Assembly (NCBI GenBank): GCA_030390025.1
Contig: CM059432.1
Span: 62,126,001-62,190,000 of the forward strand
Direction of reading: 5' to 3'
Length of the DNA: 64,000 bases
DNA from: Squalus acanthias
Lineage: Eukaryota
Part shown: one piece after another, positions 4,282-60,935 of the stretch
Position numbering within the stretch: the stretch's first letter is position 1
Layout of the letters: the number at the start of each line of letters is the position of its first letter
The notes under the pieces: generated by a model
The model's database searches: none
Seen by the model: the letters and a program-made list of their open reading frames with translations, nothing else
What the model was told of the DNA's origin: nothing
Position numbers and translations under genes: made by a program

Positions 4282-5056
4282 GGGGGGAATTTTGCCAGCC
4301 CTGGGGAGCCGGGTAAGGAGGTGGGACTGCCGGGAAAATGGCAGAATCTGGGGGCGGGTACCCATCCCGCCTCCATGCCATCTTCCCAGGAGGCGGGTAC
4401 CCAACCCCTGCCAGATCCCGTCTCCTCGAGGCGGGAAGGGGATTAGTGCCAATTAACAGGCAGTTTTTTTGGAGAATCCCTATTTTCAGCGCTGAAGTGT
4501 GGGCTTCCCGACGGCTCCAAACCACGCCAGTGTCAGCGAGGCGGGCCGTCGGTCTGCGGGGGTCGGAGGGGTCGAGATGTCCGGTGTGCAGGTGAGTGAT
4601 GGGTGCAAGTGTGGAGGTGAGTGTGTGAGGTGAGTGTAAAGTGTTTACTTCTTCTTGCAGGCTTCAACCCTTCAGGTCTCGGGAGTCCCTCATCTCACCG
4701 GCACAGAAAGCAGAATGGCCGCTGAACTGTCAAAAGCTTTGGTTTCTGCTCAGGAGAGATCTCTAACTGAGCCTGAGTGGAAGTACTCAACTTAGAGGAC
4801 AGACTGTCAGTGTTTGACAGCTTCACAGAGCCATCAAACATCATCTGTCAAAAGCTCTTGACAGGTGAAACGTCACTCGCTGACATCACCTGTAACCGGC
4901 TTTCCCTTAATTGGCCTGCTAAACCCGCTGGGTGGGATTAACAAGGTCAATGAAGGGAAAATAGTGTGGGTTGGCCACAAGTCGATGGAGGCGGGACTAA
5001 AACCCGACAAGTGGGAGTCCCGCCTCCAAAAGCTCCCCATTGACAAAATCCAGCCC
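4282..5056. mobile_element. Non-autonomous DNA transposon (PIF/Harbinger-like MITE)
   Basis: Termini GGGGGGAATTTTGCCA and TGACAAAATCCAGCCC form an imperfect 16-bp TIR. Perfect TAA duplication at 4279-4281 and 5057-5059. GC-rich interior. Confidence 0.8.
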
Positions 5057-5661
5057 TAAGGGTGCTGAGGCTAGATGTAGTGCCTGCACTGCCCTATCTG
5101 GGATCAAATATCTTGGCATTGAGTTGGCCAAACATGAAATCTTCTAGCCTATGCCACACTATAAATATTTACCAACTGAGCTATTGGGAAGCAAGTGTTG
5201 TAGATTTTTATTTGTCCTTTTGGTTTCAGTTGAAACATCAATACTCTGTTTTCAGTGATTAGCCTATTCTCGTTCTGATCCCACCTGAAAGATTAACCTA
5301 TCTTTCTCTTTCAGATGCTGATTGACTCACTGTGTGTTGCCAGCATTTTCTGGTTTTATTTCAGATTCAAATCATGTTCTGCTCAGTTCATATCTCAGTC
5401 GCGGGGAGAGAAAAAGTAAATCAGAATTGCAGGTAGTAGTCCCTGGTGCTTCCAGGTGAGTGGCTGCATGAGGCATTGGTGTCAGTCTAGGAACAGTTTG
5501 TGTAAGACCCCCTCTGCAGCAGAAGCACTAGGTCAGGCAGATGAAGAAGGCGATAAAATATGCAAAAAAAGTGGAAACTTACGGACTGTTCCCATTGACA
5601 AGTCTGAAGTTTAATTCCTAAAAGCAGAATAATAAGAGTATTCCCATCTCTCCTGTTACAG

Positions 5662-5881
5662 GTGGGAAAGCTGGCATTTTGATGGTGAAAGTCTTGGATT
5701 TGCATGAAGAATGTTCAGTGTTTGTAGCTTTGTGTCAGCCATTGCTGGAAACCTACACAGAGCAAGCTGTTGAAAATGATGACTGCACCAGCAAAACCCC
5801 CCTCAAGGTTTTATTCACAAGAGAAACAGCGTCCCACCTCGGAATCAGTGCAGGAGATACTGTTCACATCTATCCACCGTG
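5662..5881 (+). CDS. SPIDR: Internal coding exon of SPIDR (scaffold protein involved in DNA repair), DUF4502 region
   Basis: Translates as GKAGILMVKVLDLHEECSVFVALCQPL...PLKVLFTRETASHLGISAGDTVHIYPPW, matching the recalled vertebrate SPIDR motif (VKILELHEEC...LKVLFTKETA...DTVRIFPPW). It has a pyrimidine-rich acceptor ctctcctgttacAG (ends 5661, phase 1) and a donor TG|GTGAGT (5882, phase 2). Confidence 0.9.
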
Positions 5882-8570
5882 GTGAGTGCCATATATCCTT
5901 CCACAAATACAAGTTGGTGAAGTTGTTTCTTGAACACAATATTAAAATCTGAAATCAACCTATTATAATTTATACCTTACATTAATGTTGTTAAAGATCA
6001 AATAAGGGCTATTTAAAGAAAAATACCCTGTAACTAAATAATGGATGTCACAATGGAAAAAAATGTCATAGCCCTGTAAACTGATGTACTGTGAATTATT
6101 GTGTGTCTAGATAATAGATTCGTCAAGGTTTTATTGAAATATATTGCTCTTAAGGTTGCACTGCCCTGGTGTCTTCCTGAGTTCTATTTGAGATGGAACA
6201 TTTTACATGCATATGACTCCTTTCTGTGCATATTGCAGTTGGCTAAAAGAAAACATAGTATTTTTGCCAACAAATTGTAGCTATTCTTTCACAATGCACT
6301 GTATTGACGGGTAAAGGGACATACTTCAGCAGCTCCTAAAACAGAAAAGCTGTTCAGCTGCTCAATCGTGACTGAGCTGGTCTTATGATGAGGGTGCGCC
6401 TGCTGCTGCAGCTCAGTAGGCTGCCTTGGCTAAGCTTTGTGGTGTTAATGCTTCTTCCTAATTTAACTAGGCTCCCAGCATGTGGAAATACGTGCCCAAG
6501 GTGCTTGGTCTGTAGCGTAGTTGGCTGGAAGGTAAAAAATATCATGAATCAGCAGCTCTTAAAAGCCTGCAGCTTTCCATTAAAAGGAAAGTTGTAGTGG
6601 TAGTAGAAAAGCTTAGTAATTGTTTAGAATGACACAAACCTAAATTGGTAACTCCTGCACCTCTGGCAGGTACCCTTTAAGGATGTCCAACCTTTTGGAG
6701 CTGAGGGCTGAATAAATGTGTCCAAACCAGTGAGTGGCCCACATGATCTCTGATAAATATGAGGCCTGATGCATAGTAAGTCCAAATATCTCCTTATGCA
6801 AAAATCCAAGCCCATACACAAAAAAGCAAGATCCTTCGCCATACATAAAAGACCCCCATACATAAAAAATACAAGCCCCCATAAATAATAAGTCAAGCTG
6901 TACTGTGTATTTCCCTCCCGTCCTAGGTGTTTACCGCAATTGTGATAATAAATTATGACATTCAGATGTTACAACAGCGTGACGCTGCAAATAAGTGTGA
7001 CAACCAAAGTATTTGCTAGACGCAAGATTTTTTACTATATTCTATAGATATAATTACTAGCAGATCTACTATGGCATTGTTAATGGTGAGTTGGAGGATG
7101 CACTATTTTATAAAGAAATGTTATACCATGCAACACATAATGCATTTACAGAACTGAATAAGTGAAATTGCATTTTTATTAGATTTTTGTTCACATTTTG
7201 GGGGTTGGTTGAATTCTCAGATGGTCTCCATATTTCTGTGAACAATTTAAATCAGTGGCCTCCATTATTAATACTTACTCCTTTATTTATGTACTGATTT
7301 TTAATTTGTCACGTTCTTTGAAGCCAAGTATACAAAACAGGGTGATAGGCAAGATGTACCGGATGGAGACCAATTTCAAAAGCTTTAATCAGGTAAAGTT
7401 TCTGATGAGTTTTATTTCAAATTTTGCAGTAAACAAAGTCACTAATTATCTCACCTGTACTTAATTGGTAGTTAGAAAATGTAAACATTCTAATTGTTGA
7501 CACCTGTGAGACAGAGAAATACAGAGAGCAAGGAAGATAGGCAGTGTTTTTACACATCCTAATTTGATTTTAAAAGTGTAAAAAATAAGTTTGCTTTTCG
7601 AATCAAACAAGCATCTTTCAGAAAAAGAAGAACAGTAGGAGAAGGTGGGGTGAAGGCAAATGGTTTGAAGGTGTCTGGGCCGTTTGTGCCTCACCGCCCA
7701 TTCGGGGGAGCATCTGGGAATGATGGGGAAGTGGATTGAAGGTTAACAAAACTCAGGTGATAATTCGAGCTTTCAAAATTCACCTCGTCTTTTTAATTTG
7801 GAATAAAAACTCAAATTTAGATGAGGAAAGACATTGCATGTGTATGTGTCTCTGTGCCCAACAGCTGTTAATAATTAAAATGTTTACATTTTCTAACTGT
7901 CAGCACAGGTGGCAAAGATTTTTGTTTTGAAATTTAACTTTTAAAAAAATAAACTCAAATTATAATGAGGAAAGACACTCCCTCAGCTTAACATGCTTTA
8001 AGAAATGTATGGAATATAAAACAAAATCTACCCTAGGTGCATTAAATAGTTTCTCTTTCTCTCCCACCTCCGTCTTGCACACGCAGTTTAAAAAAAAAAT
8101 AAGCTAACTCTGTTTAGAAAAACACACTCAATATAAACTTTGCTTGCTTAATGCTTTTGAAATTTATCCACTAGCTTGCTTCAAATAATTCTGAAAAGCA
8201 GCTGATCAGAAATTGCTGGAAGCTAAAGAAAAAATTTAAGTTCAGTTGACTGAACAGTATTGATGCATCCTGGAAATTGGGTACATTGCACATGATCAGA
8301 TTGTACAATCCGAATTCAGTTAAGTGTCAGCCCTGGTCAAAAATACCAAGTCCAAGCCCAGCCCTATGGGAATGGCTGAGGCCACCTTTAATGGAGATAA
8401 AAAGACACGAAAGATAATACAGTGGATAAATGTAACACTGTTTGCAATATGTAATTTTATTTTTTTTAAACCCTTGTATTAGACATTAGTAATTACAGTT
8501 ACTGAGGGGAATAAATAACGGGTGAAAACTGTTCAGAAATAATTTCCCGCAATTTGTAGGAAAAGATAAT

Positions 8571-9322
8571 GGCCTAGAAATTCAAGCGCACCCAAAAACG
8601 GGCCCGCAGTGGGTGTAGGGCTCAATCTCCGTGCTTGAATGGATAGGCCTGAGATGTATGTAATACTGGGCCTCTGCCCCCTCATTATCATTGAGCCTAA
8701 AGGGTGTCCCCAGGCAGCTTGCTGGAATAAAGGACTTGAAGATCAGGCTACTGCGACTCTCAAATAAATTCTTTAAAGGCAACCGGGAAGGGTCTGCTAT
8801 GTGGCAGGGGGTGCTATAGAGAGGGGGGGGAGTGGGTAGTGCTGATCGGAGGTGGTGCTGGTCTGGTCAAGATCACGGTGGAGGTGGGGGGCTGCGGTCA
8901 CAGTCAGCGGCCTGCGTGGTTTTAAAGTGGGGTAGGGAGGAGCACTCCTGCTCTTTCAGGCTCCACATTCAGGTAAGCATATTTTAAATGTTTACCTTGT
9001 TTGTTGTGGCCTGCAGCGCACCTGTTGGGCCACATGTTGACCTGGTTTTCCTGAATGCAGCCGGCCGGGCGCTGGCTATGTTCAGGGCAACCCAGTACTG
9101 TAGCGGCGGCTTCAAACAGGCGTTAAGCGCCTTATTTAAATATGCATAGGGCCAAATGCCTGTTTCTGGCGTAGGCCCTGGACACTTTTTTTTGCCGACA
9201 CCAATATGCCGGGAGGTGCAGTTGTGGATTGTATTGTGTGTGTTTCCTGCTCACTATATTGGAAGCTTAGGAGGCCGCTTAGCACAAGAAAAACAGACGC
9301 TGCATGGTTGAATTTCTAGGCC
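8571..9322. mobile_element. PIF/Harbinger-like MITE
   Basis: Perfect 15-bp TIR GGCCTAGAAATTCAA / TTGAATTTCTAGGCC. Flanks AAT/ACT (3-bp duplication, one mismatch). GC-rich block in AT-rich DNA. Confidence 0.8.
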
Positions 9323-10507
9323 ACTGTATCGTCACCTAATAGTCAGATTGTGCACTAACACGATGACAGGTTTACATAGACGAGTTCTATTTTAAATTTA
9401 GCATAGGAATTAATAATAAGTTTGACATGAAGGTATGACAACAAAAAGTGATGAGAAGAACAAAGGTTTTATAGACAGGAAGAGCACACAGACGCAAGAT
9501 TTTTTTAAAAATGAGATAGGTAGGTAAATACCAGTAAAAATCGCTAAATCGTAGGTTGCGTTTATTACACTATTATACTTGTACTGGACTTGCATCACAA
9601 TCAAGCTAAAATACTTAGAATAGGGTATAGTGGAAAGAATAGAGGGGACAGAGACAAAGCAAAGCGGAAGTAAAGTTTTTAATATATAACATTAATATGA
9701 CTCTTATAAATGTTTTTCTGATACCTGAATAACATTGCTACTAAAATACTGCCCCCCTCCTCTTAATTCTGTCACTTAATTCACACCATCTGATTGAATA
9801 TTTTTAGCGCTAAATTCCCAGATGACTACTTTTTACTTTTCTCAATTCAAATTATTGGATAGTTCAGTTTTTATTGGTGCAAACAAGGATTTATAATTAT
9901 CTGGAGTAGACTTCATTAAAGGATATGTTCTAGCATTCAAATGTGAGTTGATTTTTAAAAAATAACTCAGTAAGCACAGAATTCCCTGGCGATGTTGGCA
10001 ATATAAGGGTTAATTAAAGCTTGTATTCTTTGGGGTCTTCACATTGTCCAGTAAGTTGGGAATCTCGTGCAATGCTTAGTTTAGTATATTTTAATTTGAA
10101 CCAAAAAAATCTTCCCATTAAGCTTGTCCAGACATAAGCTTAGGAAATTCCATTCATTCCATCGTGACAGGTTAGATGAGCAAGCCCACCAATGATTTAG
10201 GCAATAGTTCTTCTAGTAGATTGAACAGACTGATTATCTTTTATATGGTACATCACGGTCCCTGTCTATGCAATAACTTTCTCTGGATGACTGGAGGAGA
10301 GAAAAATGTATACCCAACCAGTATCTGAATTACATTATATATGTACAGTACAAACAACCTTATATCCCTGTTCTTCTCACTTAGATTATATCTTTGCAGG
10401 TTGTTATCTTTTATCTGTTCCACAATCAACCTGTTGCCTTTTATCTGTACAACAGACAGTGAGCAAGGGAAAGAATGTAGTGGCTGTCTACATAAATTCA
10501 ATAGTAA

Positions 10508-10602
10508 TGCCGTTGCACACCAGCTACCACACGGGCTTGACAGAGCAAGGTCTTGGTCCAATGGCAAGGGAATCCAAGACGATTGGAGACCAGGCTCTGC
10601 TA
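10508..10602 (-). repeat. Fragment of an unclassified short retroposon (inverted partner of 11150-11348)
   Basis: gcacaccagctaccacacgggcttgacagagcaaggtcttgg is the reverse complement of about 11162-11203. Confidence 0.7.
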
Positions 10603-10990
10603 CATTATATTCTATGCCTCGGCTAATAAAGGCAAGTAGCCCGTATGCCTTCTTAACCACCTTATTTACCTGTCCTGCTACCTTCAGGGATCTGTGGACA
10701 TGCACTCCAAGGTCCCTCTGATCTCCTGCACTTCTCAGTGTCCTACCATTTATACTGTATTCCCTTGCCTTGTTAGCCCTCCCCAAATGCATTACTTCAC
10801 ACTTCTCCAGATTGAATTCCACTTGCCACTGTTCTGCCCACCTGACCAGTCCATTGATATCTTCCTGCAGTCTGCAGCTTGCTTTCTTCATTATCAACCA
10901 CACAGCCAATTTTTGTATCATCTGCAAACTTCTTAATCATACTTCCTACATTCAAGTCCAAATCATTGATATGTACCACAAAAAGCAAAT
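10603..10990 (-). mobile_element. CR1 internal RT fragment
   Basis: ORF fragments read INDLD...KFADDTKIG and WQVEFNLEKCEVMHLG...QRDLGVHVH. Confidence 0.85.
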
Positions 10991-11149
10991 GACAGCTGTG
11001 GTGTCACAAGTTCATTGCCATGTCATTTCTAGATCCAGTGCCTCGTTGTCTCAGTAACACTGTCACTACTCCAGGATCATCCTGGAATGCAAAGATAACC
11101 CCCGGCTTCTCTTTACTACAAACCATCTTCTTAAACCCCACTCCCCTGC

Positions 11150-11348
11150 CTCCGCATTGATCCAAGACCTTGCTCTGTCAAGCCCGTGTGGTAGCTGGTG
11201 TGCAATGGCCACCCCACGTTAAAAGAATTCATGCACAGGCATCTTCCACCCTTTAAAATGAAGTTCGGGCATCAGTCACCTGAGAACTCATTTTTAGTGT
11301 GGAAGCAAGTCATCCTCGGTTCTGAGGGACTGCCTAAGAAGAAGAGAA
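11150..11348 (+). mobile_element. Unclassified short retroposon / LINE 3' end with (AAG)n tail, possibly RTE-related
   Basis: Ends in gagggactgcctaagaagaaga. The same terminus recurs at about 26754-26783. Confidence 0.55.
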
Positions 11349-11494
11349 GAATAGTAATGATGGTCTGAGTGTCAGCTTGCAGTAACTACATCCAATTGCT
11401 GGTAGAAATTTGTGAATGGTATTCTGATTAGTTACATACCATGCATACTATGGTTAGATGCTTCCCCACCAGCTTTATGCTGAAAAAATTGATA

Positions 11495-11770
11495 ATTTGC
11501 ATTTATAAAGGGCTTTTAATGTATAAAATATCCCAAAGCACTTTGCAGAGGGGAGAGAGAAAATAAATAAATGGAGCGAGAGTTAGGAGATGTGACCAAA
11601 GGATTAGTCGAAAAGGCTTTTAAGGGTGGAATGAGAGGTGGAGGAGTTTAGTGAGGGAGTTACGGAGAATAGGGCCAAAACAGCTGAAGACCTTGTCACG
11701 AATGCTGAGGCAAAAGGAGCGGGTTTATCAAGATGCCACAGTTGGAGAACCAAATGTTATGGGAGGGGAT
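11495..11770 (-). mobile_element. Degraded L2-type LINE 3' remnant
   Basis: Diverged match to the 3' end of the L2 at 27830-28100 (atcccaaagcacttt; gtgaccaaag; gggagtt..cagctgaag). Confidence 0.5.
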
Positions 11771-12257
11771 TCAAGGCTCTAGTCTGAGGCTGGCTGGCTG
11801 ACTCTTGCGACACTGTCCAAGGTTATTATTAAAGTGCCACATTAAGATACCTTCTAGCACTGGCACAAACATCATGCCCTCTGTCACAAAAAAACCCGCA
11901 TCTCAAACATCCAAAATATCTTAAATTGCATAAATTTCTGAAAAAAAGAAGCCTTTCTATTTTTGAGGTTTTTTTCTGCTACTCGCACCTTGTGGTTTGT
12001 ATTTTTTTTTCTGATGTTGTCTTGTAGCAAGGTTGTCACGGTGCACTCAATGTATTGTTCCATAGGAGCAGGCCGTGAACTATAACTCCCACAATGCATA
12101 TCTCTCTCTCAATTTGTCAGCAGGAATTGAAAATTGCTCGATCAATTCAAGGCTCCTTTTAAGAACATAACATAAGAAGTAGGAGCAGGAGTAGGCCATA
12201 TGGCCCCTCGGGCCTGCTCCGCCATTCAATAGGATCATGACTGATCCGAACTTAGAC

Positions 12258-15200
12258 TCACGTCCACTTCCCTGCCCGCTCCCCATAACCCTTAATTCCC
12301 TTATCAGCTAGGAAACTGTCTATCTCCGTTTTAAATTTATTTAATGTTGCAGCTTCCACAGCTCTCTGAGGTAGCAAATTCCATAGATTTACTACCCTCT
12401 GAGAGAAGAAGTTTCTCCTCATCTCAGTTTTGAAACGGCAGCCCCTTATTCTAAGATTATGCCCCCTAGTTTCTAGTCTCACCCATCAGTGGAAACATCC
12501 TCCCCGCCTCCACCCGATCAAGCCCCCTCACAATCTTATATGTTTCGATAAGATCGCCTCTCATTCTTCTGAATTCCAATGAGTAGAGGCCCAACCTACT
12601 CAACCTTTCCTCATAAGTCAACCCCCTCATCTCTGGAATCAACCGAGTGAACCTTCTCTGAACTGCCTCGAGAGCAAGTATATCTTTTCTTAAATATGGA
12701 AACCAAAACTGTACGCAGTATTCCAGGTGTGGCCTCACCAGTACCTTGTATAACTGAAGCAAGACTTCCCTGCTTTTATACTCCATCCCCCTTGCAATAA
12801 AAGCCAAGATTCCATTGGCCTTCCTGATCACCTGCTGTACCTGCATACTAACCTTCTGTCTTTCATGCACCAGGACCCTCAGATCCCTTTGTACTGTAGC
12901 ACTTTGCAGTTTCTTTCCATTTAGATAATAACTTGCTCTTTGATTTTTTTCTGCCAAAGTGCCTAACCTCACACTTTCCAACATTATATTCCATCTGCCA
13001 AATTTCCGCCCACTCACTTAGCCTGTCTATGTCCTTTTGCAGGTTTTTTATGTCCTCCTCACTCACTGCTTTTCCTCCCATCTTTGTATCGTCAGCAAAC
13101 TTGGATACGTTGCACTTGGTCCCCTCCTCCAAATCGTTAATATAGATTGTAAAGAGTTGGGGTCCCAGCACTGACCCTTGCGGAACACCACTAGTTACTG
13201 ATTGCCAACCTGAGAATGAACCATTTATCCCAACTCTCTGTTTTCTGTTAGATAGCCAATCTTCCACCCATATATTACCCCCAATCCTGTGATTTTTTAT
13301 CTTGTGCAGTAATCTTTTGTGTGGCACCTTATCAAATGCCTTTTGGAAGTCCAAATACACCACATCCACTGGTTCCCCTTTATCCACCCTGTTTGTTACG
13401 TCCTCAAAGAATTCAAGCAAATTTGTCAAGCATGATTTCCCCTTCATAAAACCATGCTGACTCTGTCCGATTAAATTATGCTTATCCAAATGTCCTGTTG
13501 CTGCTTCCTTAATAATGGACTCCAACATTTTACCAACCACAGATGTTAGGCTAACTGATCTATAGTTTCCAGCCTTTTGTCTACCTCCCTTTTTAAATAA
13601 GGGCGTTACATTAGCAGTTTTCCAATCTGCTGGGACCTCTCCCGAATCCAGGGAGTTTTGGAAAATTACCACCAATGCATCCGCAATCCCTACCGCTGCT
13701 TCTCTCAAGACCCTAGGATGTAAGCCATCAGGTCCAGGGGATTTATCCGCCTTAAGTCCCATTTTCTTACTGAGTACCATCTCCTTAGTGATTTTAATCG
13801 TGTTTAGCTCCTCCCCCCTATAGCCCCCCCCCCGTTTGTCCAGTGTTGGGATATTTTTAGTATCCTCTACTGTAAAGACTGATACAAAATATTTGTTCAG
13901 CGTATTTGCCATCTCCGTGTCCCCCACTACTAATTTCCCGGTCTCGTCCTCGAAGGGACCAACATTCACTTTAGCCACCCTTTTTCTTTTTATATAACTG
14001 TAGAAACTCTTGCTATCTTTTTATATTTTTTGCTAGTTTACTTTCATAATCTATCTTCCCCTTCTTAATTAATCTTTTAGTTATTCTTTGCTGGCTTTTA
14101 AATGCTTCCCAATCTTCTATCCTCCCACTAGATTTGGCTACTTTATATGCCCTTGTTTTCAGTCGGATACTATCCTTTATTACTTTACTTAGCCACAGAT
14201 GGCTGTCTTTTCTTTTACGCCCCTTTTTCCTCAGTGGAATATATTTTTCTTGAAAGTTGTGAAATACCTCCTTGAATGTACACCACTGCTCCTGTACCGT
14301 CTTACACCTTAATCTATTTTCCCAGTCCACTTTAGTCAACTCTGCTCTCATACCTTCATAGTCTCCTTTATTTAAGCTTAGTACGCTGGTTTGAGATCCA
14401 ACTCTCTCACCCTCCAACTGAATTTGGAATTCAACCATGTTATGGTCACTCATTCCAAGGGGATCCTTTACTAGGATATTTTTTATTAATCCTGTCTCAT
14501 TGCACAGGACCAGATCTAAGATTGCCTGCCCCCTGGTTGGTTCAGTAACATACTGCTCAAGGAACCCGTCCCTAATGCACTCTATGAACTCTTCCTCAAG
14601 GCTGCCCTGCCCAATTTCATTTGTCCAGTCAATATGAAAGTTAAAATCTCCCATGATTATAGCTGTTCCCTTATTACAAGCCCCAACTATTTCCTGATTT
14701 ATACTCCGACCAACAGAGTTACAACTGCTAGGAGGCCTATAGACTACGCCCACTAGTGACTTTTTCCCCTTATTATTCCTTATCTCCACCCAAACTGTTT
14801 CACTATCCTGATCCTTTGACCCAATATCATTTCTCACTATTGCAGTGATTCCATCCTTTATTAACATAGCCACCCCACCTCCCTTTCCTTCCTGTCTGTC
14901 CTTCCTAATAGTCAAATACCCCTGGATGTTTAGTTCCCAGTCATGGTCACCTCGCAGCCATGTTTCTGTAATGGCCACCAGATCATACCCATGTGTAGTT
15001 ATTTGTACCGTCAACTCGTCTATTTTGTTACGAATGCTGCGTGCATTCAGATAAAGAACTTTTAAACATGTTTTGTGACAATTTATTCCTGCTTTTACCC
15101 CCTTTACTACTTTATCTTTATATATTCTGTCCCTTCCTGACACGCTCTGGTTTTTAATTTCCCCACTGCTAATTTGCTCTATTGCCTTCTCCGCTGACAT
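12258..15200 (-). pseudogene. CR1 ORF2: APE endonuclease plus reverse transcriptase, broken into four ORFs
   Basis: EN motifs YLNARS, ITETWL, MGDFN, LDLV and SDHN; RT motifs [21 protein letters not shown] and FADD. Confidence 0.92.
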
Positions 15201-15238
15201 TTTTATTCTTCGCTCTCTTGAAACCTCCCCCCCACTAA

Positions 15239-16197
15239 TTAGTTTAAAGCCCTCTCTACAGCCCTAGTTATTCGATTCGCCAGGATTCTAGTCCCAGCAC
15301 TGGCCAAGTGAAGTCCGTCCCAACGGAACAGCTCTCTTCCGTCCCAGTACTGGTGCCAGTGTCCCAAGAAGCAAAACCCATTTCTCCCACACCAGTCTTT
15401 GAGCCACGCATTTAACTCTCTGATTTTATTTACCCTAGCCAAATTTGCTCGTGGCTCAGGTAGTAATCCAGAGATTATTACCCTTGTGGTTCTGTTTTTT
15501 AATTTGGCCCCTAGCTGCTCATACTCCCTCAGCAGAACCTCTTTCCTTGTCCTATCTATGTCGTTGGTACCAACATGGACCACGACAACTGGATCCTCCC
15601 TCTCCCATCCAAGTTTCTCTCCAGCCCAGAGGAGATGTCCTTAACCCTGGCACCGGGCAGGCAACACAACCTTCGGGACTCTCGCTCTCGGCTGCAAAGA
15701 ACCCTATCTATCCCCCTTCTGATACTATCCCCTACCACTACAACATTTCTTTTTACTCCCCCCACTTGAATGGTCCCCCGTTCCACGGTGCTGTGGCCAG
15801 GTTGCTCATCCTCCCTGCAGTCCCTGCTCCCGTCCTCACAGGGAGTAAGAGCCTCGAACCTGTTGGACAAGAGCAAGGGCTGCTGCTCCTCCAACACTAC
15901 CTCCTGGATCCCCGTACCTGCCTCACTCATAGTCACACCCTCCTGTCCCTGACCACGGACTACATCTGAATTAGTTAATCTAATTGGTGTGACTACTTCC
16001 TGGAACACAGAGTCCAGGTAACTCTTTCCCCCCCCCCCGATGTGTCGCAGTGTTTGAAGCTCGGACTCCAGCTCATCAACACGGAGCCGGAGCTCCTCGA
16101 GCAGCCAACACTTACTGCAAATGTGATCACCGTGAGCATCAACGGTGTCCACCAGCTCCCACATATTGCAGCAGTAACACATCACCTGCTCTCCCAT
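15239..16197 (-). pseudogene. CR1 ORF1: zinc finger/leucine zipper plus SGNH esterase, one frameshift
   Basis: CYCC...HICSKC followed by LEELRLRVDELESEL. Esterase blocks VVVGDS, LPGA, VHVGTND and DGLHL are split across ORFs 15556..16197 and 15239..15583. Confidence 0.85.
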
Positions 16198-16885
16198 TCT
16201 ATGTAATTAATTAAATTTATTAATATTTTTTAAATACCCTCTGCCCCGCCTGATGAATATCACACCTTAGAAACTATATACCACAGAGTTTAAGTTTAAA
16301 AAGAGAGAAATACTCACCAACCAATTACTTACCTGCTTTCTGGTGACGTCACACCTCGATTATTTTTTACCTCTCTCCCTCCCTCCGAGTTCGGAGACTG
16401 GTCCCGCCTTACCTGGTCTCTGGAGCCTTTTAAACCCTCTGCCGCCGCCTCGCCTCACGCAGGTCCGCCGTCGCACCAGGAAGCTTTTCTACCTAGTTGT
16501 CATGTAATGTAGGTTGTTCTGAAGCTGTATATTACAGTTCCACAGGAGCAAGGTAATAAGAACTCCCAAAAAGCATCTCTGATATATCAATCGTCCGCAT
16601 TTCACTCTGACTGAATTCTGTAAGGCTTGTCCATGCGTCAATGACAGGCCTCACAAACTGGCGTTTTTGTAGTTTGGGCCGTTGTTTGCTTCAAGTTACC
16701 CCAGAATGTCTAAAAATATTGTGTGCTTGTGCAAATTTCAGGCAATTATGAAATTTGAGTGTGATGTAGTGGAAACATGGTTCCTGAACAAGTTCTGCGA
16801 TGCATTTGGCACCAGACTAGTAAGGGATTAAACTTTTCTGTGGATTGTTTTCCCGTAAGTGATACCTTCTTAGAGGTTTTTTTTT

Positions 16886-17436
16886 TACAAAGAATTTACA
16901 GCACAAAAACTAGTCTATGCTGGTGTTTATGCTCCACACAAGCCTCCTCCCACTCTACTTCATCTAACCCTATCTACATATCCTTCTATTCCTTTCTCTC
17001 TCATGCAGCTTCCCCTTAAATCTATACTGTTCACCTCAACTACTTTATATGGTAGTAAGTTCCACATTTACATAGAATATACAGCACAGATATAGGTCAT
17101 TTGGCCCAATCAGTCCATGCCAGTGTTTATGCTCCACTCGAGCCTCCTCCCATCCTTCATCATCTAATTCCATCAGCATAACCCTCTATTCCCTGCTCCC
17201 TCCTATGCTTATCTAGCTTTCCCTTAAATGCATCTATAATATTCACCTCAACCACTCCCAGTGGTAGCCAGTTCCACATTCTCACCAATCTCTGGGTAAA
17301 GAAGTTTCTTCTGAATTTCCTATTTGATTTCCTGGTGACTATCTTATATTGATGGCCTCTAGTTTTGCTCTTCCCCACAGGTGGAAACACTCTCTCTGTT
17401 TACTCTATCAAAACATTTCATAATTTTAAAGACCTT
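16886..17436 (-). mobile_element. Two adjacent 3' fragments of a second CR1 subfamily (tails at about 16886 and 17071)
   Basis: ORF 17160..17390 reads TRGHQYKIVT...FRRNFFTQR. The 3'UTR resembles those at 44773 and 52903. Confidence 0.8.
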
Positions 17437-18200
17437 GGGCTGGATTTTCATAGGGAAGGTGGGTTGGGGGCGGGGGTTGGGGCTCCAGTGCAGGCGGGAG
17501 ACCTGAGAGAATGGCAGGGCCTGATTTGCATCTGAAGCCTCTGTTTCCTGCCCCCAGCCAGATGAAGAGGCCAGCTGGCTGTGGGCGGGTAGGCCTGCAG
17601 CACCAGGCCGCACAAAGGAGTAAAGGAGGGATCGGGTGGGAGCTGGTGCCGGCCTCCGAGGGGGGTGGGAGGGAGGACGGGAGGTGAGGGCGATCGCGGC
17701 CGTCGAGGGACTGGGGGGGAGGGAAGATGATTGCGGCCATCAAGGGACTCGGCGGGGGGGGGGGATGATGTGAGAGGAGATCAGGGCCGGCCACCAGAGG
17801 ATCCTGGCCGTCCTATTGCTGATCGGGGTGGGGGGGGCGGTGGGGCAAGGGAAGAAGATTGGGGCCGGCCACTGGAGGATTGTGGCTGACCTCTTGCTAA
17901 TCTTGGTGTGGGGGGAGTGGTGGGAGTCTGGGAAGGTGATTAGAGGCCTCGTGTGGAGGTCTACGATCACGGGGGACCCTGTATCCAGGAGGTAGGTGTA
18001 AAGGCACTTACCTCCTGGATGCAGCAGTCCCCGACTTGCTGTAACTGTCGGGTTTTACGAAGTGTGTGAAACCCTTCCAGCTGCAGTTAAAAACAAAATG
18101 TAGGTTAAAGAGACTTCCAGCCTCATTATAATATTTAAATTGACGCCCTCCTCCTGGCAGCGGGTTGGCTATATCCTGTTTGACTGAAGACAGCAAAATT
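17437..18200. mobile_element. Harbinger-like MITE, right end not found
   Basis: Starts GGGCTGGATTTT, the reverse complement of the right terminus of the 4282 element. It directly abuts a CR1 fragment and has a G-rich interior. Confidence 0.6.
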
Positions 18201-18327
18201 AGTGGGTCTCTGACATCTCAAATTAATGATCTTCAGACATGGACGGAGGAGGTATTTTTAACAAAGTAGTTCACTTCGACTCTCCATCCCCTTCAAATAA
18301 AATGTTTTAAAGTATATGACATTGATT

Positions 18328-19776
18328 GGGCCATAATTTGCGGCCCCTACGGGTGCGTACGAGGAGTGCACGCGCCCGTAGGAGCCGCGCAAGTTCTGGG
18401 TTTAGGCATGCGAAGTGCATGCGCTAAAACCCGGAACTTACAATCTTGATGGATCATCCGCCTCCCTGGGAAAAGGGCATCCGCGCGCGGAGAGTTGGGC
18501 TATTTGCCCTACTTCTGCCCAGCGAATGCCCGTGAAATTCTTAGGCCTGGTAAAAGCAGGCGCAAGGCCTGTTTTTACCAGAGTAAGACTTTTAAAGAAC
18601 AGAAAAATAATTTTTTTCCAATAATTTATACATTTAAAAACCTGTGAAATAAGGGGTTTATTTTTAGTCCGTTTAAAATATGTAAATTTATTTTTCAAAA
18701 AATTTAATTTTTGTTTTAAATATTTAATTAAATGCCATTTTGATTAATTTTAAATGTAATTTTTTTAAATTTATTTTATGTGTACCTGTATTTTTGAGGG
18801 TATTCCCATTCATACTTATGGGGATTCCATACATATAGGGGGGAAAAATTCAGTTGGTTGCGCTTCCCATTAGCGCCTTAAGAGGGCGCTAATGGGGCGC
18901 AAATCATCTAGCGCCCAGGCTCGGCGATGTTTGCGCCGCTCGGGAAATTAACTAGACATTTTGCGGCGGCGCTAAACACTACCGCAACGATCTCCTGCGC
19001 CGGCAGATCGTGACGTCAGTCGAGTGCGCAACGCCCCGGTATCGCCCCGGAGCGGATATTGAGTGGCGCCCCTTGCCTTACCGCCTGACGCTAGCAACGA
19101 CAGGTTGAGGGGAGCGTTTTGCAGTCATGAAGGGACTGGGGGAGCGCTATTTAAAGGCGACCGCTTCCTGCCTTTTATTGTTGGTGCCATTTTTGAACCA
19201 CGCATTCTGAGAGAGAGAGAGAGACTTCTGGAGAGATTCAACGCTGTGTGAAGGAGTTTTTGGTACTGAGCAGCACTTTGCAGGTTCATTTTGATTTGCC
19301 ATTCCTTGTATCGATTTAGAAGAGATTGTGGTGGCTGCACTCTGAGCTCTTTCCCTGGTACTCTCCATTGTCCTTTCCAGCAGATTTGATGTGCAGATCT
19401 CTCCAGGCCGAGATTCAAAGCTGCAATGAGCAGGATGTGGATGGAAAGCAAGATCAACCATCCCCTTTAAAAACTGGTCCGTGCCATTGTGTGTGTGTTC
19501 CATTGCTGACTGATATCACATGAGCTTCGCCAGCACTCTGAGGTAGCGCCTCGCTCCTCGGCCTTTGCGCCTTAAGACAGATGTGTAGTGCCTGATTTAG
19601 CGCTTCAATCACCTCCAGGGGCGATAAAAGACAAGTTTGCAAAAGGTGGCGATAATTAGCGCCAGGCGCTAATCTTTGTGCCCGGCCGATAATTGCGCCC
19701 CAAATGGGGCGATACTGAATTTCTCCCCCATGGAATCTCCATAAGTATGAATGGGGATCCCTTTCTTTCATTGGTT
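18328..19776 (+). mobile_element. Harbinger-like MITE family A, truncated, interrupted by a family B element
   Basis: ATT|GGGCCATAATTTG terminus and a subterminal palindrome ctacgggtgcgtac...gcgcccgtagg. Colinear with 43341-44053. Strand is arbitrary. Confidence 0.8.
18839..19729 (+). mobile_element. Harbinger-like MITE family B, nested in family A
   Basis: TIR GGGGGAAAAATTCAGT / ACTGAATTTCTCCCCC. Homologous in inverted orientation to 47518-48265. Internal (GA)n. Confidence 0.85.
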
Positions 19777-25000: not shown

Positions 25001-27829
25001 ATTCTGTAAATGATCTTCTTGAAACAAATGATACTGCCTCAGGTGCCATGCCAAAATACCTAATTTATAGGCATGGTCCTGTAGGTATTGGTTACCTGTT
25101 ACAAACTTTTTTTCATGCAAATGTAAAGCAACATAAACTGAAAAATCAAAATGTGCATTCTATGGGAAAGGTAAGATTGTGATTGGCAATATCAACTGGA
25201 CAGTGCTCTCCCTTAATGCTGCTCACCTGTGCTGTTTCTTCCTGTATATAGCTTTCTGTGTACCTTTTTGTCTTTGTCTCTGAATAGCTCTTTTTCTTTC
25301 CCCTTGTATTCTTTGAAAGACCCATGCATGAATTGATTCTGTATTAAGTTCATAATACGAAGGAAAGACTTCTTTGCAGCTCTGTGGCCGCCTTGTTTCT
25401 CTGAGTGAATTTTGAAGCATTGATTTTGTTTCTTGATTTCTGCTTTACCAGTTGTGAATGATGGAAACATCACTCTCCAACTTTCCAATGCAAGGTGGTG
25501 CACCATGCTAAAATATAAAATGAGTAATGGTTAAGGAATAAATATAATGTGCTAGACATTGGCCAGGAATTTCTACTTCTGCACTTGCTAGCTTGTGATT
25601 TTCTGCCTGTCCACTTTAATGGGTGGAAAATCGTGGGTTGACAAGTGCAGGAGCGGTAAACCCTGGCCATTGAGCTGCCACTTTTTTTTTTTAAGCATTA
25701 GAGTTCCAAAAAGCCTTCATGTTGATTTTTTTTTTACACTTCATTCTGACAAGCTAAATGTACCTTAGCGAGGTAGTGCTTTAAAATACTATCAGCAGCA
25801 AGGTTAACCCAAATACAGAAATTAAAATAATCCCCGTTGCTCCTAATGTTGGTGTCCCAGCCTCCTGCTGTAACTACATGATAACTTGTTTTAAGTAATA
25901 GTTAATTGCCCTGGATAGTAATGTTTTCTCACTATTGACCACAAATGGATTATTTGTAGATTCACTAAATTGACCAAAGTTCTTTGTTTATTTTGCCACT
26001 TTATTCAAATTAGTAAAAGAGCAGCAAAGTTTGAAATGGCCCACTGTTTTCATAAAAGAACAACCATTTTTTGTTTACAAATGCATGCCAGGCTTAAAAT
26101 GCATCATTAATCATTTATACATGATGTCAAAATGGTGTGTATCTTCTGGCTTTTACTGTCCCCACAATGAAAGGTTTGCCTAACATTTTTTTAGTGTCAG
26201 ACAGTAAACAATTGACTAAAACTGAGCACTGAGAAAGCTAATCAAGTCACTTTATGACAGATGTGGGCAATCCAAAAGAGAGCAGTAGTGGGATTGTTTG
26301 TTTTGAATTTTAGGTTACAGTGCAATCTAATCCTGATAACCGCATAATTTGTAAAAAAAAAATGAATGTCTAGATGTAAACTTTTGTTTAATGGGAGTAA
26401 ATATAGAGTATATCCAACGTGATGGAAATACTGTAAATGTTTGGATGAGGTATATGTTTGTCCATTGCAGTCATTTGGTGGGCATTTGTAAGTGCTATAA
26501 ACAGACCAAGAGCTGCTTCTATCTGCAGATTTTATGACAGGATGTGTACTTGGTGTGAGGTTACTTCTGTTTTGTGTACTGGGCTTGGGGACATGTAACC
26601 CAGTTTAGGCAAAGTGAAAACAGTAGTAAACAATTCTTTCATGTATTTTTTCAATTCTACTCTCCTGGTATGTTAACGCAGCACACATTTCACTTTCCAA
26701 AAGATTGTTCAAATCACAAGGCTCTTAACCAAAACAAAGTTGTTCTTAAAGCATGTTCCGAGGGACTGCCTAAGAAGGAGAAGATGCTTTGATGTAACAG
26801 TACTATGATGCATTTGAGTACAGTGCATTATTTAAAAATTTGAAGCTTTGCTTTTTACAGGGTGTTGAGTTTGTCTGTCTGTCAAGTTGAAGCATGTTGA
26901 TGCCAGGGTTTTGTCCTTGGTGTCAAATGGGTTAGTTGCAGAATAAAGCTCCCTGCACGTTGCCCTAATAAAGTGTCTCAACCAAAGTAGAGCACTTTGT
27001 ACCGGAGCAAATGTGACATTTCCATTTCTTACATCAGCCGTCTTGTGGCTTGTTTCATGCTAAACTAGCAATTTAGCGCTGATCAGTACAGTTTTCTGCT
27101 GTGAATTCACACCACAAGGACCTGTACTGTGACTGCAGAAAGTAATTTCTCTTGGCACTTTACAGTCAGCATAGAGTCTCTGCTGTCATCATTATTCTGG
27201 ACTAGATTTGAGCCCAAGTCCGAGAGAAGGAAGGACCATTTTCGAATAGGCTGTGGAACCTATTTAACCATCAGTTTTTATTTTTTAGTTTTCTTGATTT
27301 CTATAGGGACTAGGGACATTCAGAGGCAGCAGTGTTAAATTATACCTTAATTAATGGTGTCCTTTACTCTGTTTTTGCCATTACTGGTGCCTGAGATGGT
27401 CCAGTTGGGGGTGGCCTCAATTTGCTCAAAATATTAAGTTTTCTTTCTGCTTATTTGTACTCCAAATACATTATATGGCATTCCACCTTCCTGTGCATTT
27501 TCAGTGTATGCAAATACTGTTGCTGAGCAGAAGCTTTTGCTGTGGCCTTGCTGGAGAGAGCAATGGCAAAAAAAATTTAAATCACATTTACCATTGATAA
27601 TGAATTTCCAAGCCAGTTGTTAACCAGATTTCTGTGAAAGGAACAGATACTTTTTTGGATATACACTATGTAAGGGTATGCTCCTTCACCTTTCCTGTCT
27701 TCCCTTGCAAGCTTCACTCAGGCTATGTACTTCCATTAGCTGAGATGGTGGGGTAGGAGACCATTTTCCCAGCTGTTACCAGTACTGCTGTCAGGTGGTC
27801 ACCTTGAGCAAGTGAGGTGTATACACTAC

Positions 27830-45674: not shown

Positions 45675-45847
45675 ACTGCAACAGCGCAGCCAGTGTCAGA
45701 GCAGTGAATGACTGACAGCAACTTCAGGATTTCCACATTGGGATGCGCATGCGCTACATCCTGAAATTGAAATTGCGGTTAGTTTCAAAGGGGTAATAAC
45801 AGCAAAAGCTGTTCGTTCGCTGTTATTACCCACAGCAAATCCGGGCC
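45675..45847. mobile_element. One-ended Harbinger-like MITE fragment
   Basis: Ends CAGCAAATCCGGGCC|ATT. Internal palindromes ggtaataacagc...gctgttattacc and gcgcatgcgc. It replaces part of the CR1 RT. Confidence 0.6.
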
Positions 45848-46407: not shown

Positions 46408-46450
46408 ATAGCTGTCCGCCAGTCCTTTGGCACTATTCTAATAAATGTTT

Positions 46451-47851: not shown

Positions 47852-47897
<46 letters not shown>

Positions 47898-57075: not shown

Positions 57076-59429
57076 ACCATGATCGTATGATTTCCTCCTT
57101 GGACTTTAATGGGCAACAAGGATCTTATTACTTATAATTCAGCTCACAGTTTCATGTCTGCTGCATGCCAGCCTTCCCCATTTTGTACTCATGCCAACTA
57201 TTTCAATAAAATTATCATTAAGAGGAATTTCACCTGCTGTAAAGTCCAACTACTTTCATTATCAGGGAATGGTAGCAGTGTTCAAGTCTTGTACCCTGTT
57301 CAGGAGTGTGATATAGGGATTAGTTTGTTGTCTGACAGGTGATCCATCTTTCATTTCTAAGCACGTAAATATATGTACAGTTTTCTTTCATTTTCTTTCC
57401 CCCCCCCACCCCACCCACCTCTTTTATTGATATTACTCTGGTCATTGGTGCTCCTCTTAAACTGCAAGTACATCTCCAACATGTTCTTCCTCCTCCAGAT
57501 ATGGTCATTTTGTTGAAATCAAGAGACTTATTGTAGAGTTACCTAATCTATTTAATTCTTTCCCAGGACCAGGAAAATTGAATTCCTTACCTTTCTGTCT
57601 TTCCTTCCTCCTATGATCTTCAGACTGTTAAAACTCAAACGTGGCATCATCTGAAACAATATTTCCTGATCCACCACCTCATTTTCACCCTTTCAACTTT
57701 GGTGATGTGCAGAACAATGGGCCTTGGTCTTTCACCTTGGTTTCTTAATTTAAAAAGCATTTAATTAGAATGTGTGTTGTCCATTCCTGTTCCATTCCCT
57801 CCCCTCTCGCATGTGGTACACTGACATATTAATCCTACCTGCTTTTATGTCAATAAAGAAACATGCAGAATGTTAGGATCTGCAGAACTGGGGGACCAAT
57901 AACTAAACTACTTAACAAATGTAAATAATAATTATAAGAGCCAGTTCAAGCACTCTTGTTAAGGTTCTTGTATCAGTTATGAGCAGTGTTTCCATTGACA
58001 ACTCACCTTTCTGCTTAACTGGTAATGGTGTTAGCACATGGGGAGGAAATATAAATGGAAAAAAATGGATTAGAATTATTGAAATTACAGCTCAAAAAGT
58101 GGCCATTCAGCTCACCACGAATTTTCTGGTACTAGCTTTTTAACTGGAGACACCTGTTCTAATTTGATTTCACTGCCCTTTCCCGTATTCCTTTATATTC
58201 TTTATTTTCAAATACATAATGAAAGTAGTGTTGAAGTAAAAACTCTTGAATTGAAATGATGCAACAACAGGTAAGCATAGCACTTGAGATCAGTTTTAAT
58301 CTTGCTGCTGATTAAAGTAGAATTAGAAATTGATCCAGAGGACAAGTATTCAAAAGTCGTTGATGTTAAATGATCTCTTTCCAAGCATTTACTGATTTGG
58401 TTTAAGAAAACTCAACATTTACCACTCGCTTTACAAATAGTTACCCATAAGGGAGGAGGAACTGCGATTGAATGGTTTTGTGAAACTCATCTTGGCCTTT
58501 GTTGAAATTCTGGTTTCAGAAGTGACTTTAAGATAAATAATCATGTTCCAGCAAGAGAAAATGTTATTTAATGGAGATATTTTCTATCAGTTAACATTAT
58601 CGGTACTTTTGTTGCTTAAGAGATAAGAGGTACATTGTTCTGAAGTTGAGGTAAATGGAGTTTAATTTTCTTTGTGACATTTATTCAGTACTAAACATCT
58701 GCTTTTGAGGGGATTTGGGGGTCTGATGTTTTCCATCTCAATGCTTTATTAATATTGGCACAAAGATACAAGGTTTTTTTGATGAATGTCAATACTTTCA
58801 TCTTCAAAATGAAATGTACTAAATTATACGTGAGTATTTCATGTTGCAAATTATTTTATAAGGCTAGTTGTATAGATGAACAGACAAGGTTTGTAGGATT
58901 AAAATGATGGTATAAATACCCAGTTAGTTAAGAATATTTACCTTTTATTTTTATATTTTACCATTTATGTAGATGGATTGCTGTTTTGTTTGTCCATTTA
59001 TCCAAAGTAGTATAAAATTCCAAGAAGCCGAATTGCTGTTAGTGTGGTGATACGTTCAGTGTCTGGTGAGCAAGAAAACCCTGCTTGTACTCCAGTGACC
59101 TCCTCACCAATGCATATTAATATTTTCTATTTTAGCACCGTTATAAATGATCTTTCTCTAATAAATGAAATTTTCCATTATTTGTACAGTTGTAGTGTCT
59201 CTAGCTCTTTGAATGCAATCCCTTGCTTCCAAATGTCCTAACTTTAATAAAGTTATTAGCTACAAACCTAGACCCTCTACTTACAATGCCTTTTGTTGAG
59301 GTCATTAATACATGGGTTGAATAGATGGGATCTGAGGACTGATACCTGAAAGCTCTGTTGGTCACAGCTGCACAATTAAAACTGTTACTATCTGTCCTTG
59401 ATTTCCTATCAGCTAATGTATAATCCATT

Positions 59430-60935
59430 TAAGAACTAACGAACCCCAGAAACACAAAAACACCATTCGGCCCAATCAAGCCTGACCTATTCATAAATAA
59501 GCATTATCCACTCACCTTCTCTCACTCAAAACATTTCCAATTGCCTCTTGAGCCCAATTTATACTGTCTGCTTCAATGGCTCTTCCCTGGTAAGTTATTC
59601 CACAACTTGCACACCTTTGGTGAAAAGGTTCCTTACTCTTAACTCTTTAACTCTTCACCATAGTGAATGATTTGCCTGAATCAGTTTGTCAATTCCTGTC
59701 ATAATGAAGACAAGTCTCCTTTGCCCCCAAAGAAAATAAGTCTGACTTCTTTAACCTTTCCTGAGAAGAATTCCTATAACTAAAATAATTTCATTGCCTC
59801 TGTACTCTAAAAAGCAATAGCATCCACCTTGTGATTCAAAGACCAGACTGCACCCAGTACTTCAGAGCATCTAACCAACCCCTTATAGAGCAACAATATA
59901 ATCTCTTTAGACATATTGGCCCGTAATTTCCGATAGGAGGCTTCCTGCGTGCGGATGCCTCCTATCGGAAAAAAATCTACGCACTTACCTGAGGGCTCCC
60001 GAGGTCCGGACAGTTCCGATGCTGGGCCTCTCCACAGTCGAAATGCGCAGGGCCCACGTATCCCAGAGGCGCATGCGGTTCGCAAGCGTCCCTGGGATCA
60101 TGTGGGCCAGGCGAGCCAATGAAAGAAGGGAATCCCCCTTCATACTTTTGACAGACAGATCTGTCAAAAGTATGAATGGGGATCACTGAAAAAAGACACG
60201 AAAACATTAAATACATTTGTAAAAATCCATCACGTTTTTAAAATGAGTTAAAATTACATTAAATTAAATATTTTAAACAAAAATTTAATTTTTTGAAAAA
60301 ATATAAGTTTTTTACGGGGCTAAAAATAAACTTACCTTTTTTAAAAGTATATTTAAATTATAAATGAGTGGGGAAATTTTTTTTTTTAATTTTAAACTCT
60401 TATGCTGGTAAAAGCAGGCCTTATGCCTGCTTTTACCAGGCGCAATATTTCTCAGGGTTTTCAGCAAGCGGAGGTTTTGCAGAAAGCGGAACTCTCCCCC
60501 CGCAGAGGCCCTTCTCCAGGGCAGGCGTCCGATCTGTCAAGAGCACTTGGCATGCCTGAAACCGGCATTTCCGATGTCCCTACGGGTGCGTACACAGCTC
60601 ATACATACCCGTAGGCATCGGAAAATACGTGCCATTATATCCCTCTGCCGATGTAACTGAGCACCTTATTTTTATTTTGCTAAGCACTATATTGACAGTT
60701 TCACAGATTTATCCACCATAACCCTTAGATTTGTTTCCTGATGAGCATGTTGTACCATTGTCCCATCTTTTGGCTCCTTGCTTCCATACAAATTGTTTTC
60801 TATTTTACCACTTTGAATTGCATCAGTTGCCTATTGGCCCATCCACATATCTAAGGATATTTACTCCTAATGTTATTACATTGTTGCTTGGTATCCTCTG
60901 AATCATTAATCTACCCATATAATTAACGGTTTTAC
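59430..60935 (-). mobile_element. Old degraded CR1 that hosts a family A MITE
   Basis: 3'UTR-like ccattcggcccaatcaagcctg, and the KEIILLLYKGLVR segment in ORF 59807. Confidence 0.65.
59918..60633 (-). mobile_element. Harbinger-like MITE family A, complete, inverted relative to 43341
   Basis: TIR GGCCCGTAATTTCCGA / TCGGAAAATACGTGCC. Perfect ATT duplication at 59915-59917 and 60634-60636. Confidence 0.9.

Follow-up and report, generated by a model that had tools for sequence, protein, structure and literature searches.

Short GC-rich elements with a common terminus and 3-bp target-site duplications in Squalus acanthias: probable non-autonomous PIF/Harbinger transposons

Introduction

Within a window of 64,000 nucleotides of the Squalus acanthias genome, which is the whole stretch of DNA analysed here, short GC-rich repeats resemble one another at their ends and differ in their interiors. 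This raises the question of what kind of transposon they are and what could have moved them. An earlier note had read them as about ten MITEs of a candidate uncharacterised PIF/Harbinger system with relaxed target choice. We examined the termini, the duplicated target, the flanks, the coding content and the abundance of these elements, and compared them with the known groups of the PIF/Harbinger (PHIS) superfamily.

Results

Eight elements in the window retain both ends (lengths 631-1058 bp) and three retain one terminus (the left ends of 17437 and 18328, and the right end at 45847); the proposed set of about ten short MITE-like elements with a common end is real. Ten of the eleven starts listed in the earlier note are genuine element ends; the remaining one, 45675, is the edge of a broken fragment whose sole terminus is at 45847. 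An additional element at 25561..25668 had been overlooked. The elements are given below, with the strand where one was assigned; ANNY and RNNT are the flank motifs before the left and after the right target triplet.

4282-5056: two-ended MITE, singleton family, 775 bp; TAA/TAA in the context C|TAA|G; ANNY and RNNT both present
8571-9322: two-ended MITE, singleton family, 752 bp; TIRs identical over their first 14 bases; AAT/ACT; both flank motifs present
17437..18290: MITE left end with GC-rich body in the 3' part of a CR1; left triplet CTT; the right coordinate is a weak candidate
18328..19776, plus strand: family A copy; left triplet ATT; family B insert at its central palindrome; right third and right TIR gone
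18839-19729, plus strand: family B copy inside the family A copy, 891 bp; right triplet ATG, left ATA plus one extra base
23308-23938: two-ended MITE, singleton family, 631 bp; TIRs inverted-identical over 16 of 16 terminal bases; AGGGG start; CAA/CAA; left flank motif present, right absent
25561..25668: hairpin-like 108-bp element; GGCC ends; ATT/ATT; left flank motif present
28838-29895: two-ended MITE, singleton family, 1058 bp, counting a nested TA-flanked 434-bp element (29296-29729); CAA/CGA; both flank motifs present
43341-44053, plus strand: family A copy in a CR1, 713 bp; TTT/ATT; flank motif half present
45675..45847: fragment with the right end of a further family, lying in a CR1; right triplet ATT; RNNT present; left end lost in a deletion that also took about 300 bp of the surrounding CR1
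47518-48265, minus strand: family B copy in a CR1 reverse-transcriptase stretch, 748 bp; AAA/AAA; both flank motifs present
59918-60633, minus strand: family A copy, 716 bp; ATT/ATT; both flank motifs present

Two other boundaries were rejected. Taking 18290 as the right end of 17437 (CTT/CTT) gives a score of 3.3 bits, and the sequence beyond it is no continuation of the host CR1; for 28838, the end at 29895 was preferred to an inner right end at 29265, as it has the higher score and both flank motifs.

All 19 element ends have the consensus RGSSNNNAWWTT in common. Position 1 is A or G, position 8 is A, positions 9-10 are A or T and position 11 is T in every one of them, and position 2 is G in 18. 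Each complete copy has a TIR of one type, 13-17 bp long, in which 10-13 of the first 13 bases pair. With a purine start at all ends and G as the second base at 18 of 19, the elements possess the short A/G-starting TIRs that are described as PHIS group features (PMC4482050). A length of 25-50 bp is given as usual in one teleost paper, which is longer than here and counts against a PHIS assignment. In a leave-one-out test, the end profile gave at least 11 bits for 15 of the 19 ends, and shuffled windows contained about nine such sites (both strands summed). The 13-bp profile is degenerate: 19 sites reach at least 13 bits, three of which are not element ends, and shuffles yield 2.8. High-scoring end pairs accompanied by a duplication occur 0-2 times per shuffle.

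The interiors, which are GC- and CpG-rich, differ as had been described, and form two multi-copy families and six singletons. Family A (18328, 43341, 59918) is 69-82% alike and family B (18839, 47518) 82% alike; the remaining six elements have no similarity above noise.

The seven duplications quoted in the earlier note were all found as described (TAA, CAA, AAA and ATT perfect; AAT/ACT, TTT/ATT and CAA/CGA imperfect). With three bases taken as the duplication, 19 of 24 bases match and four of the eight pairs are perfect, the other four being imperfect; the null values are 6.85 and 0.19, and neither observed value was reached in 20,000 draws. Lengths of 2 and of 4-9 bases are at chance level, and P is ~1e-4 when the right triplets are permuted across elements. 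Uninterrupted CR1 paralogues within the window provide empty sites: for 47518, the two flanks have an overlap of exactly 3 bp in five of six, the sixth having a local deletion, and for 43341 in 6/6, i.e., in 11/12 for both elements pooled. The target triplet of 43341 is ATT in four of its six empty paralogues. A 3-bp target-site duplication is therefore well supported.

The triplet spectrum at the 11 sites is loose (NWN) and fits none of the named PHIS groups well, which counts against a PHIS assignment. The TWA duplication of PIF/Harbinger in the strict sense (Han et al. 2015) was found at 1/11 sites, the CWG of NuwaI at none, and the C|TNA|G of NuwaII at 4282 alone. The ANT of Pangu occurs at five sites, every one in GGCC-ended elements. 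The 2-bp AT in A|AT|T of ISL2EU does not agree with the data (8/16 bases match with two bases taken as the duplication, P 0.07; paralogue overlap of 3), nor does the AAATTT insertion without duplication of Spy, since a duplication is present. Taken by itself, 8571 fits a 2-bp or a 3-bp reading with one mismatch.

Outside the triplet, the sites are much more uniform. ANNY precedes the triplet in 14 of the 19 half-sites versus a background of 14% (P ~6e-9; small flank samples, with 3 of the 11 sites from one family), compared with 3/20 control sites; the signal peaks only with three bases taken as the duplication, and the motif played no part in choosing the element ends. Both half-site motifs are present in five of the eight two-ended elements, and ANNY is missing in five half-sites, including both halves of 43341. 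The insertion site is a palindrome of about 11-15 bp, ANNY-NWN-RNNT. The supposed relaxed target choice was not supported: looseness is confined to the central triplet, and the flanks are strongly constrained. A palindromic target preference beyond the duplication is likewise found in PHIS: an extended preference is described as a trait of all characterised members, with 15 bp in vertebrates (PMC2836001), and flank constraint around the triplet is known for the superfamily (PMC2836001, PMC3016246).

When the half-sites were compared with the printed target half-site of zebrafish Harbinger3_DR, 60/114 bases matched (null 35, P ~1e-5), although a further, smaller maximum lies at offset 5 (50/114). 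Harbinger3_DR and Harbinger3N_DR are also alike in having a 3-bp duplication, an A/T centre and a longer palindromic target (PMC3016246, PMC2836001). The likeness to the Harbinger3_DR target is strongest at -4 (A) and -1 (pyrimidine) and weaker at the outer positions -6 and -5, and the triplet CWG of Harbinger3_DR is absent from our 11 sites.

The statement that no transposase lies in the window was borne out: 98 open reading frames of at least 90 aa, through which the whole window was covered, had no DDE or Myb match, and a six-frame Pfam scan of seven of the twelve elements and one flanking stretch detected no transposase or Myb domains in those seven elements. The window gave no Rfam matches. 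Short (631-1058 bp), devoid of coding capacity and high in copy number, the elements have the properties of MITEs. Their summed depth ranges from hundreds to about 100,000 times the single-copy depth, a rough figure and not a copy number. In four runs the depth is high and family-specific, and family A copies with empty centres are present. The bin over the right end of 4282-5056 reaches a depth of about 370,000 in the species itself and 9,900 in organism D, and the 8571-9322 element is present in organisms G and H as well. Family B is hugely amplified in its own species and two close relatives and hardly at all in a more distant one.

Among the matches listed, the joint of 18835 to 19732 appears in 4-5 contigs in each of four runs, and other family B copies have foreign DNA joined at exactly 18839 in 6, 6 and 8 contigs. 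The copy at 18839 carries about 200 extra bases, which are absent from 47518 and, among the matches listed, from 5 contigs in one run and 9 in another. The idea that they are the start of a Myb-like gene found no support, as a protein search with frame residues 17-62 gave no candidate among proteins of 67-214 aa and Pfam detected nothing. One organism D contig has a match that starts exactly at 5056 after 230 unplaced letters, as expected of an empty 4282 site, and the left part is absent among the matches listed; no organism D contig covered 8571 among the matches listed. Exact family B patterns were found at no loci in viral contigs and at no loci in metagenome contigs.

Discussion

The 3-bp duplication and the short purine-starting TIRs agree with the earlier reading of several families of non-autonomous PIF/Harbinger elements, and we consider it highly probable that the elements are Tourist-like MITEs of the PHIS superfamily, in about eight independent families, presumably mobilised by related elements that encode two proteins and lie outside the window. 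If they move as other members of the superfamily do, an autonomous element at another genomic locus would supply a Myb/SANT protein that binds the MITE ends and recruits a DDE transposase, and this enzyme would excise the MITE and reinsert it at a target cut with a 3-base stagger. The common terminus and the common flank motif could be explained by related transposases whose target recognition falls mostly outside the duplicated triplet. The interiors may differ because the families descend from different parents or different deletion derivatives and were amplified at different times.

Comparable elements have been described. The Tourist-like MITE mPing and the short Harbinger-Snek variants are likewise short, non-coding and high-copy, with TIRs and a 3-bp duplication, and are reliant on two proteins made elsewhere (PMC2836001, PMC8437027); the non-coding Harbinger-Snek variants keep their duplication and terminal motifs (PMC8437027). 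Unlike mPing, with TTA at its shown site and a 9-bp preference (PMC2836001), the elements reported here are longer, at 630-1060 bp, and rich in GC and CpG, and their triplets are loose. Pangu, NuwaI and NuwaII have 3-bp duplications and TIRs of 11-61 bp starting with GG, GGG or AG, but their defining targets are ANT, CWG and C|TNA|G (PMC4482050), which occur here at 5, 0 and 1 of 11 sites. Table S1 of that paper gives one family as NNN.

The concentration of ANT triplets in GGCC-ended elements (ANT background 8.4%, P ~0.001) raises the question of whether two or more PHIS groups are mixed in the window, with Pangu-like GGCC-ended AWT inserters (family A, 8571, 45847 and 25561) beside Nuwa-like or Harbinger-like GGGG/GGGCT-ended elements. 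The ATT/ATT of the additional 108-bp GGCC-ended element points the same way, as does the NuwaII pattern at 4282, and Table S3 of PMC4482050 contains Pangu families with AWT or ATT targets. We nevertheless regard such a mixture as unlikely, for both end-type sets have the ANNY/RNNT flanks, another family B copy also ends on ATT, the association concerns four families only, one of which supplies three sites, and there is no vertebrate among the species named for Pangu in PMC4482050. Were it true, the common terminus would be an old superfamily trait, not the mark of one radiation; it is a refinement of the PHIS MITE reading, not its exclusion.

Another superfamily with 3-bp duplications is Zator, whose ends start with G, and the elements could be its non-autonomous members. 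The 3-bp duplications of amphioxus Zator-1 are TAA/TTA and its TIRs are 33 bp long (PMC12905397), whereas here TWA occurs at 1/11 sites and the TIRs span 13-17 bp; the flanks moreover resemble the Harbinger3_DR target, which makes a Zator origin very improbable. The passages available from PMC3014272, PMC8872380 and PMC7386202 contained neither TIR sequences from vertebrates nor data on Zator targets, and the available part of supplement 1 of PMC4482050 contained no TIR sequences.

That unrelated GC-rich repeats were grouped on a loose motif and owe their triplet matches to AT-rich flanks is largely refuted and hardly credible: the degenerate end profile, with its non-end sites near the shuffle level, and the imperfect half of the duplications would suit it, but a permutation that retains the AT-rich triplets is still significant, empty paralogues overlap by exactly 3 bp, a flank motif unused in end choice recurs, and shuffles seldom contain high-scoring end pairs together with a duplication.

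For the PHIS MITEs favoured here, the designation as an uncharacterised system was overstated, given that PIF-Harbinger has been reported in whale shark (PMC8455134) and grey reef shark (PMC12498223), in the latter among the commonest DNA transposon types. These genome papers differ from our analysis in giving class-level labels, without families, termini or target motif in the text available. The genome survey in PMC4482050 covers elephant shark, with no elasmobranch among the rows listed, and we found no publications on these particular families. The elements look like ordinary miniature Harbinger-type elements, not a new system. More speculatively, they might represent an undescribed cartilaginous-fish PHIS lineage, with transposases nearly without triplet specificity that read the flanks only (ANNY-NWN-RNNT), and perhaps with a Pangu-like branch that targets AWT and would be the first in vertebrates; the MITEs of this lineage, foremost family B, would have scattered CpG-rich pieces bearing TATA-like boxes and splice-donor motifs, of the order of 100,000 in number, through one small species group. 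We hold this to be doubtful.

The curated ends and the target motif are of modest value for abundant repeats that shark genome papers know by class label, and could serve as an annotation aid and as presence/absence markers between related species. The underlying mechanism is the known two-protein Harbinger cut-and-paste. Classifying PHIS elements solely by their duplicated triplet (TWA, ANT, CWG) does not work here, and it is the flank motif that unites these families.

Elements and their ends

The earlier note had listed eleven MITE starts, ten of which proved to be true ends. A search for the best reverse complement to each listed start gave eight elements of 631-1058 bp that keep both ends.

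Elements in the window, named by their start positions
4282-5056, two-ended element
8571-9322, two-ended element
17437, one-ended element, left end alone surviving
18328, one-ended element of family A, left end alone surviving
18839-19729, two-ended element of family B, inserted into 18328 at its central palindrome
23308-23938, two-ended element
25561-25668, extra element of 108 bp with GGCC ends and ATT/ATT
28838-29895, two-ended element, contains a 434-bp TA-flanked element of a different kind
43341-44053, two-ended element of family A, inside CR1
45847, one-ended fragment (listed start 45675), right end alone surviving
47518-48265, two-ended element of family B, inside CR1
59918-60633, two-ended element of family A

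Position 45675 was rejected as a terminus, the sole surviving end of this fragment being the right one at 45847; its left part is missing along with ~300 bp of the host CR1. The 19 surviving ends read RGSSNNNAWWTT, then mostly C, and 15 of them reach a leave-one-out profile score of at least 11 bits, while shuffled windows contain ~9 such sites. The end profile alone is loose, as 3 of the 19 window sites scoring at least 13 bits are not element ends, matching the chance prediction.

The interiors differ as had been claimed. The three copies of family A (18328, 43341, 59918) are 69-82% alike and have an AT-rich middle with a central palindrome, the two of family B (18839, 47518) are 82% alike, and the remaining six listed elements show no likeness to each other above noise. 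No match to a transposase or Myb domain came from six-frame Pfam scans of seven elements in which stops were treated as X. Two motifs picked after sequence inspection are common to unrelated families, i.e., a splice-donor-like GTAAGT (8 seen vs 2.5 expected) and a TATA-like TATTTAAA (8 vs 1.7); such shared internal motifs were noted in 8571, 17437, 18839, 23308, 28838, 43341, 47518 and 59918. In family B, TATA-like boxes face inward from both ends, a pattern that a two-promoter parent would leave. Some 200 bases at 19308-19523 of copy 18839 are absent from copy 47518 and, among the matches listed, from contigs of relatives G and H. The 434-bp element at 29296-29729, nested in 28838, has 43-bp inverted arms with CAG...CTG ends, TA on either side and an internal 68-bp duplication; from its end pattern we take it to be Tigger/pogo-like.

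Duplication and target site

The proposed 3-bp duplication was borne out. Across the eight complete elements, 19 of 24 duplicated bases match with four perfect pairs, against 6.85 bases and 0.19 pairs under a null drawn from the flanks; lengths of 2 and 4-9 stay at chance level, and permuting the right triplets among elements, which keeps AT richness, gives P ~1e-4. The window contains uninterrupted paralogues of the CR1 copies in which elements 43341 and 47518 sit. The flanks overlap by exactly 3 bp in all six such paralogues for 43341 and in five of six for 47518, the sixth having a local deletion. Since four of the six paralogues read ATT at the 43341 site, its left TTT is a later change.

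Relaxed target choice, also suggested earlier, holds for the triplet and fails for its flanks. The triplets at 11 sites, tallied with the right-hand copy for 18839 and 43341, are TAA, AAT, CTT, ATT (four), ATG, CAA (two) and AAA; all have a central A/T, five are ANT, one is TWA and none is CWG. A flank motif, A-N-N-Y-[duplication]-R-N-N-T, occurs in 14 of 19 half-sites (the flanks outside the triplet at each surviving end) that were fixed before the motif was known (background 14%, P ~6e-9). It occurs in 3 of 20 control profile matches outside the listed element ends, one of the three being the extra element 25561. Its count is highest with three bases as the duplication, the runner-up being 8/19 at offset 5. 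Both halves fit in five of the eight complete elements; the motif A is absent on both sides of 43341, and the motif fails on the right side of 23308. In place of a relaxed target, we propose a loose triplet set within conserved flanks.

Copies, relative age and setting

Contigs from four runs were compared over 4120-24110 at 85% likeness: the own species (A), relatives G and H, ~3% different, and D, ~6-7% different. Summed depths, to be read as orders of magnitude and not as copy numbers, reach 2.2 million for family B in A; G and H give 0.9 and 1.8 million, and D 2,700. Single-copy contigs lie at a depth of 5-20. Family A totals 116,000, compared with 32,000 in D, and the end of 4282 totals 369,000, compared with 9,900 in D; 8571 and 23308 have ~2,000 and 9,000, respectively. 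Position 18835 is joined to 19732 by at least 4-5 contigs in each of the four runs, representing family A copies that lack the B insertion, and foreign DNA is joined at exactly 18839 by at least 6-8 contigs in three runs, which fixes the family B end there.

Among the matches listed, G and H contain 8571 and the left end of 23308, yet lack the long CR1 at ~12160-16480, so both MITEs are older than the split from G and H; these matches include no outright orthologous empty site. The CR1 itself is near full-length, with long open frames for esterase-like, endonuclease and reverse transcriptase domains, and one listed D contig skips it together with a LINE piece at ~10480-11350.

The window is CR1-rich, CpG-poor, vertebrate-type DNA, and Pfam matches over the cut-off among its 98 ORFs of at least 90 aa are the reverse transcriptase, endonuclease and GDSL-like domain of LINEs. 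CpG observed/expected is 0.75 in the 11 listed elements (7,822 bp) vs 0.30 outside them; it reaches 0.86-1.11 in families A and B, yet their copies differ by 18-31%, which reflects either differences between subfamilies of younger copies or escape from methylation decay. The sole DNA-transposase trace seen is a remnant of a hAT C-terminal dimerisation domain at 30369-30545, minus strand (PF05699, E 1.7e-11), a kind not expected to yield 3-bp duplications. The AT-rich stretch 7372-8164, where several inverted arms of 46-54 bp are nested (I4, I5, I7) and depth is modestly raised, is possibly an old fold-back element. Directly left of 4282 lies a very high-copy SINE-like repeat (~3900-4259), from which more than 1000 contigs per run continue at 4259 into a common tail absent from the window copy.

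Relation to known groups and mechanism

The earlier PIF/Harbinger call stands in the broad sense of the superfamily, a placement well supported at the sequence level by the 3-bp duplication, the short purine-starting TIRs and the extended target. Every characterised PIF/Harbinger element is described as having an extended target preference, over 9 bp for plant elements and 15 bp for vertebrate ones (PMC2836001, in the part available). As far as the accessible texts define these groups, ISL2EU and Spy (PMC4482050) and Zator (PMC12905397) do not fit the set, and it departs from the triplet definitions of strict PIF/Harbinger (TWA, 1/11), NuwaI (CWG, 0/11) and NuwaII (PMC4482050). The ANT triplet of Pangu is present at five sites, all GGCC-ended; these and the extra element 25561 belong to four families only, and on these four families the substructure hints at the Pangu group (PMC4482050, accessible text). 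The target printed for Harbinger3_DR (PMC3016246, available part) resembles the half-sites, matching 60 of 114 bases (35 expected, P ~1e-5).

In the accessible parts of the respective reports, PIF-Harbinger is recorded for the whale shark (PMC8455134), ranks with the commonest types of DNA transposon in the grey reef shark (PMC12498223) and went undetected in the elephant shark (PMC9179366). We found no description of these families or their target in the accessible literature on shark Harbingers and MITEs.

The elements are TIR-bounded, non-coding and high-copy, and their insertion sites have the form ANNY-NWN-RNNT, with a 3-base stagger. By analogy with the superfamily, the mechanism is the one already known: a Myb-like protein would bind the element ends (PMC2836001, PMC9179366, available parts) and recruit a DDE transposase, both presumably encoded by autonomous elements elsewhere. 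Related transposases would account for the common end and flank motif, and separate parents and bursts for the differing interiors and depths.
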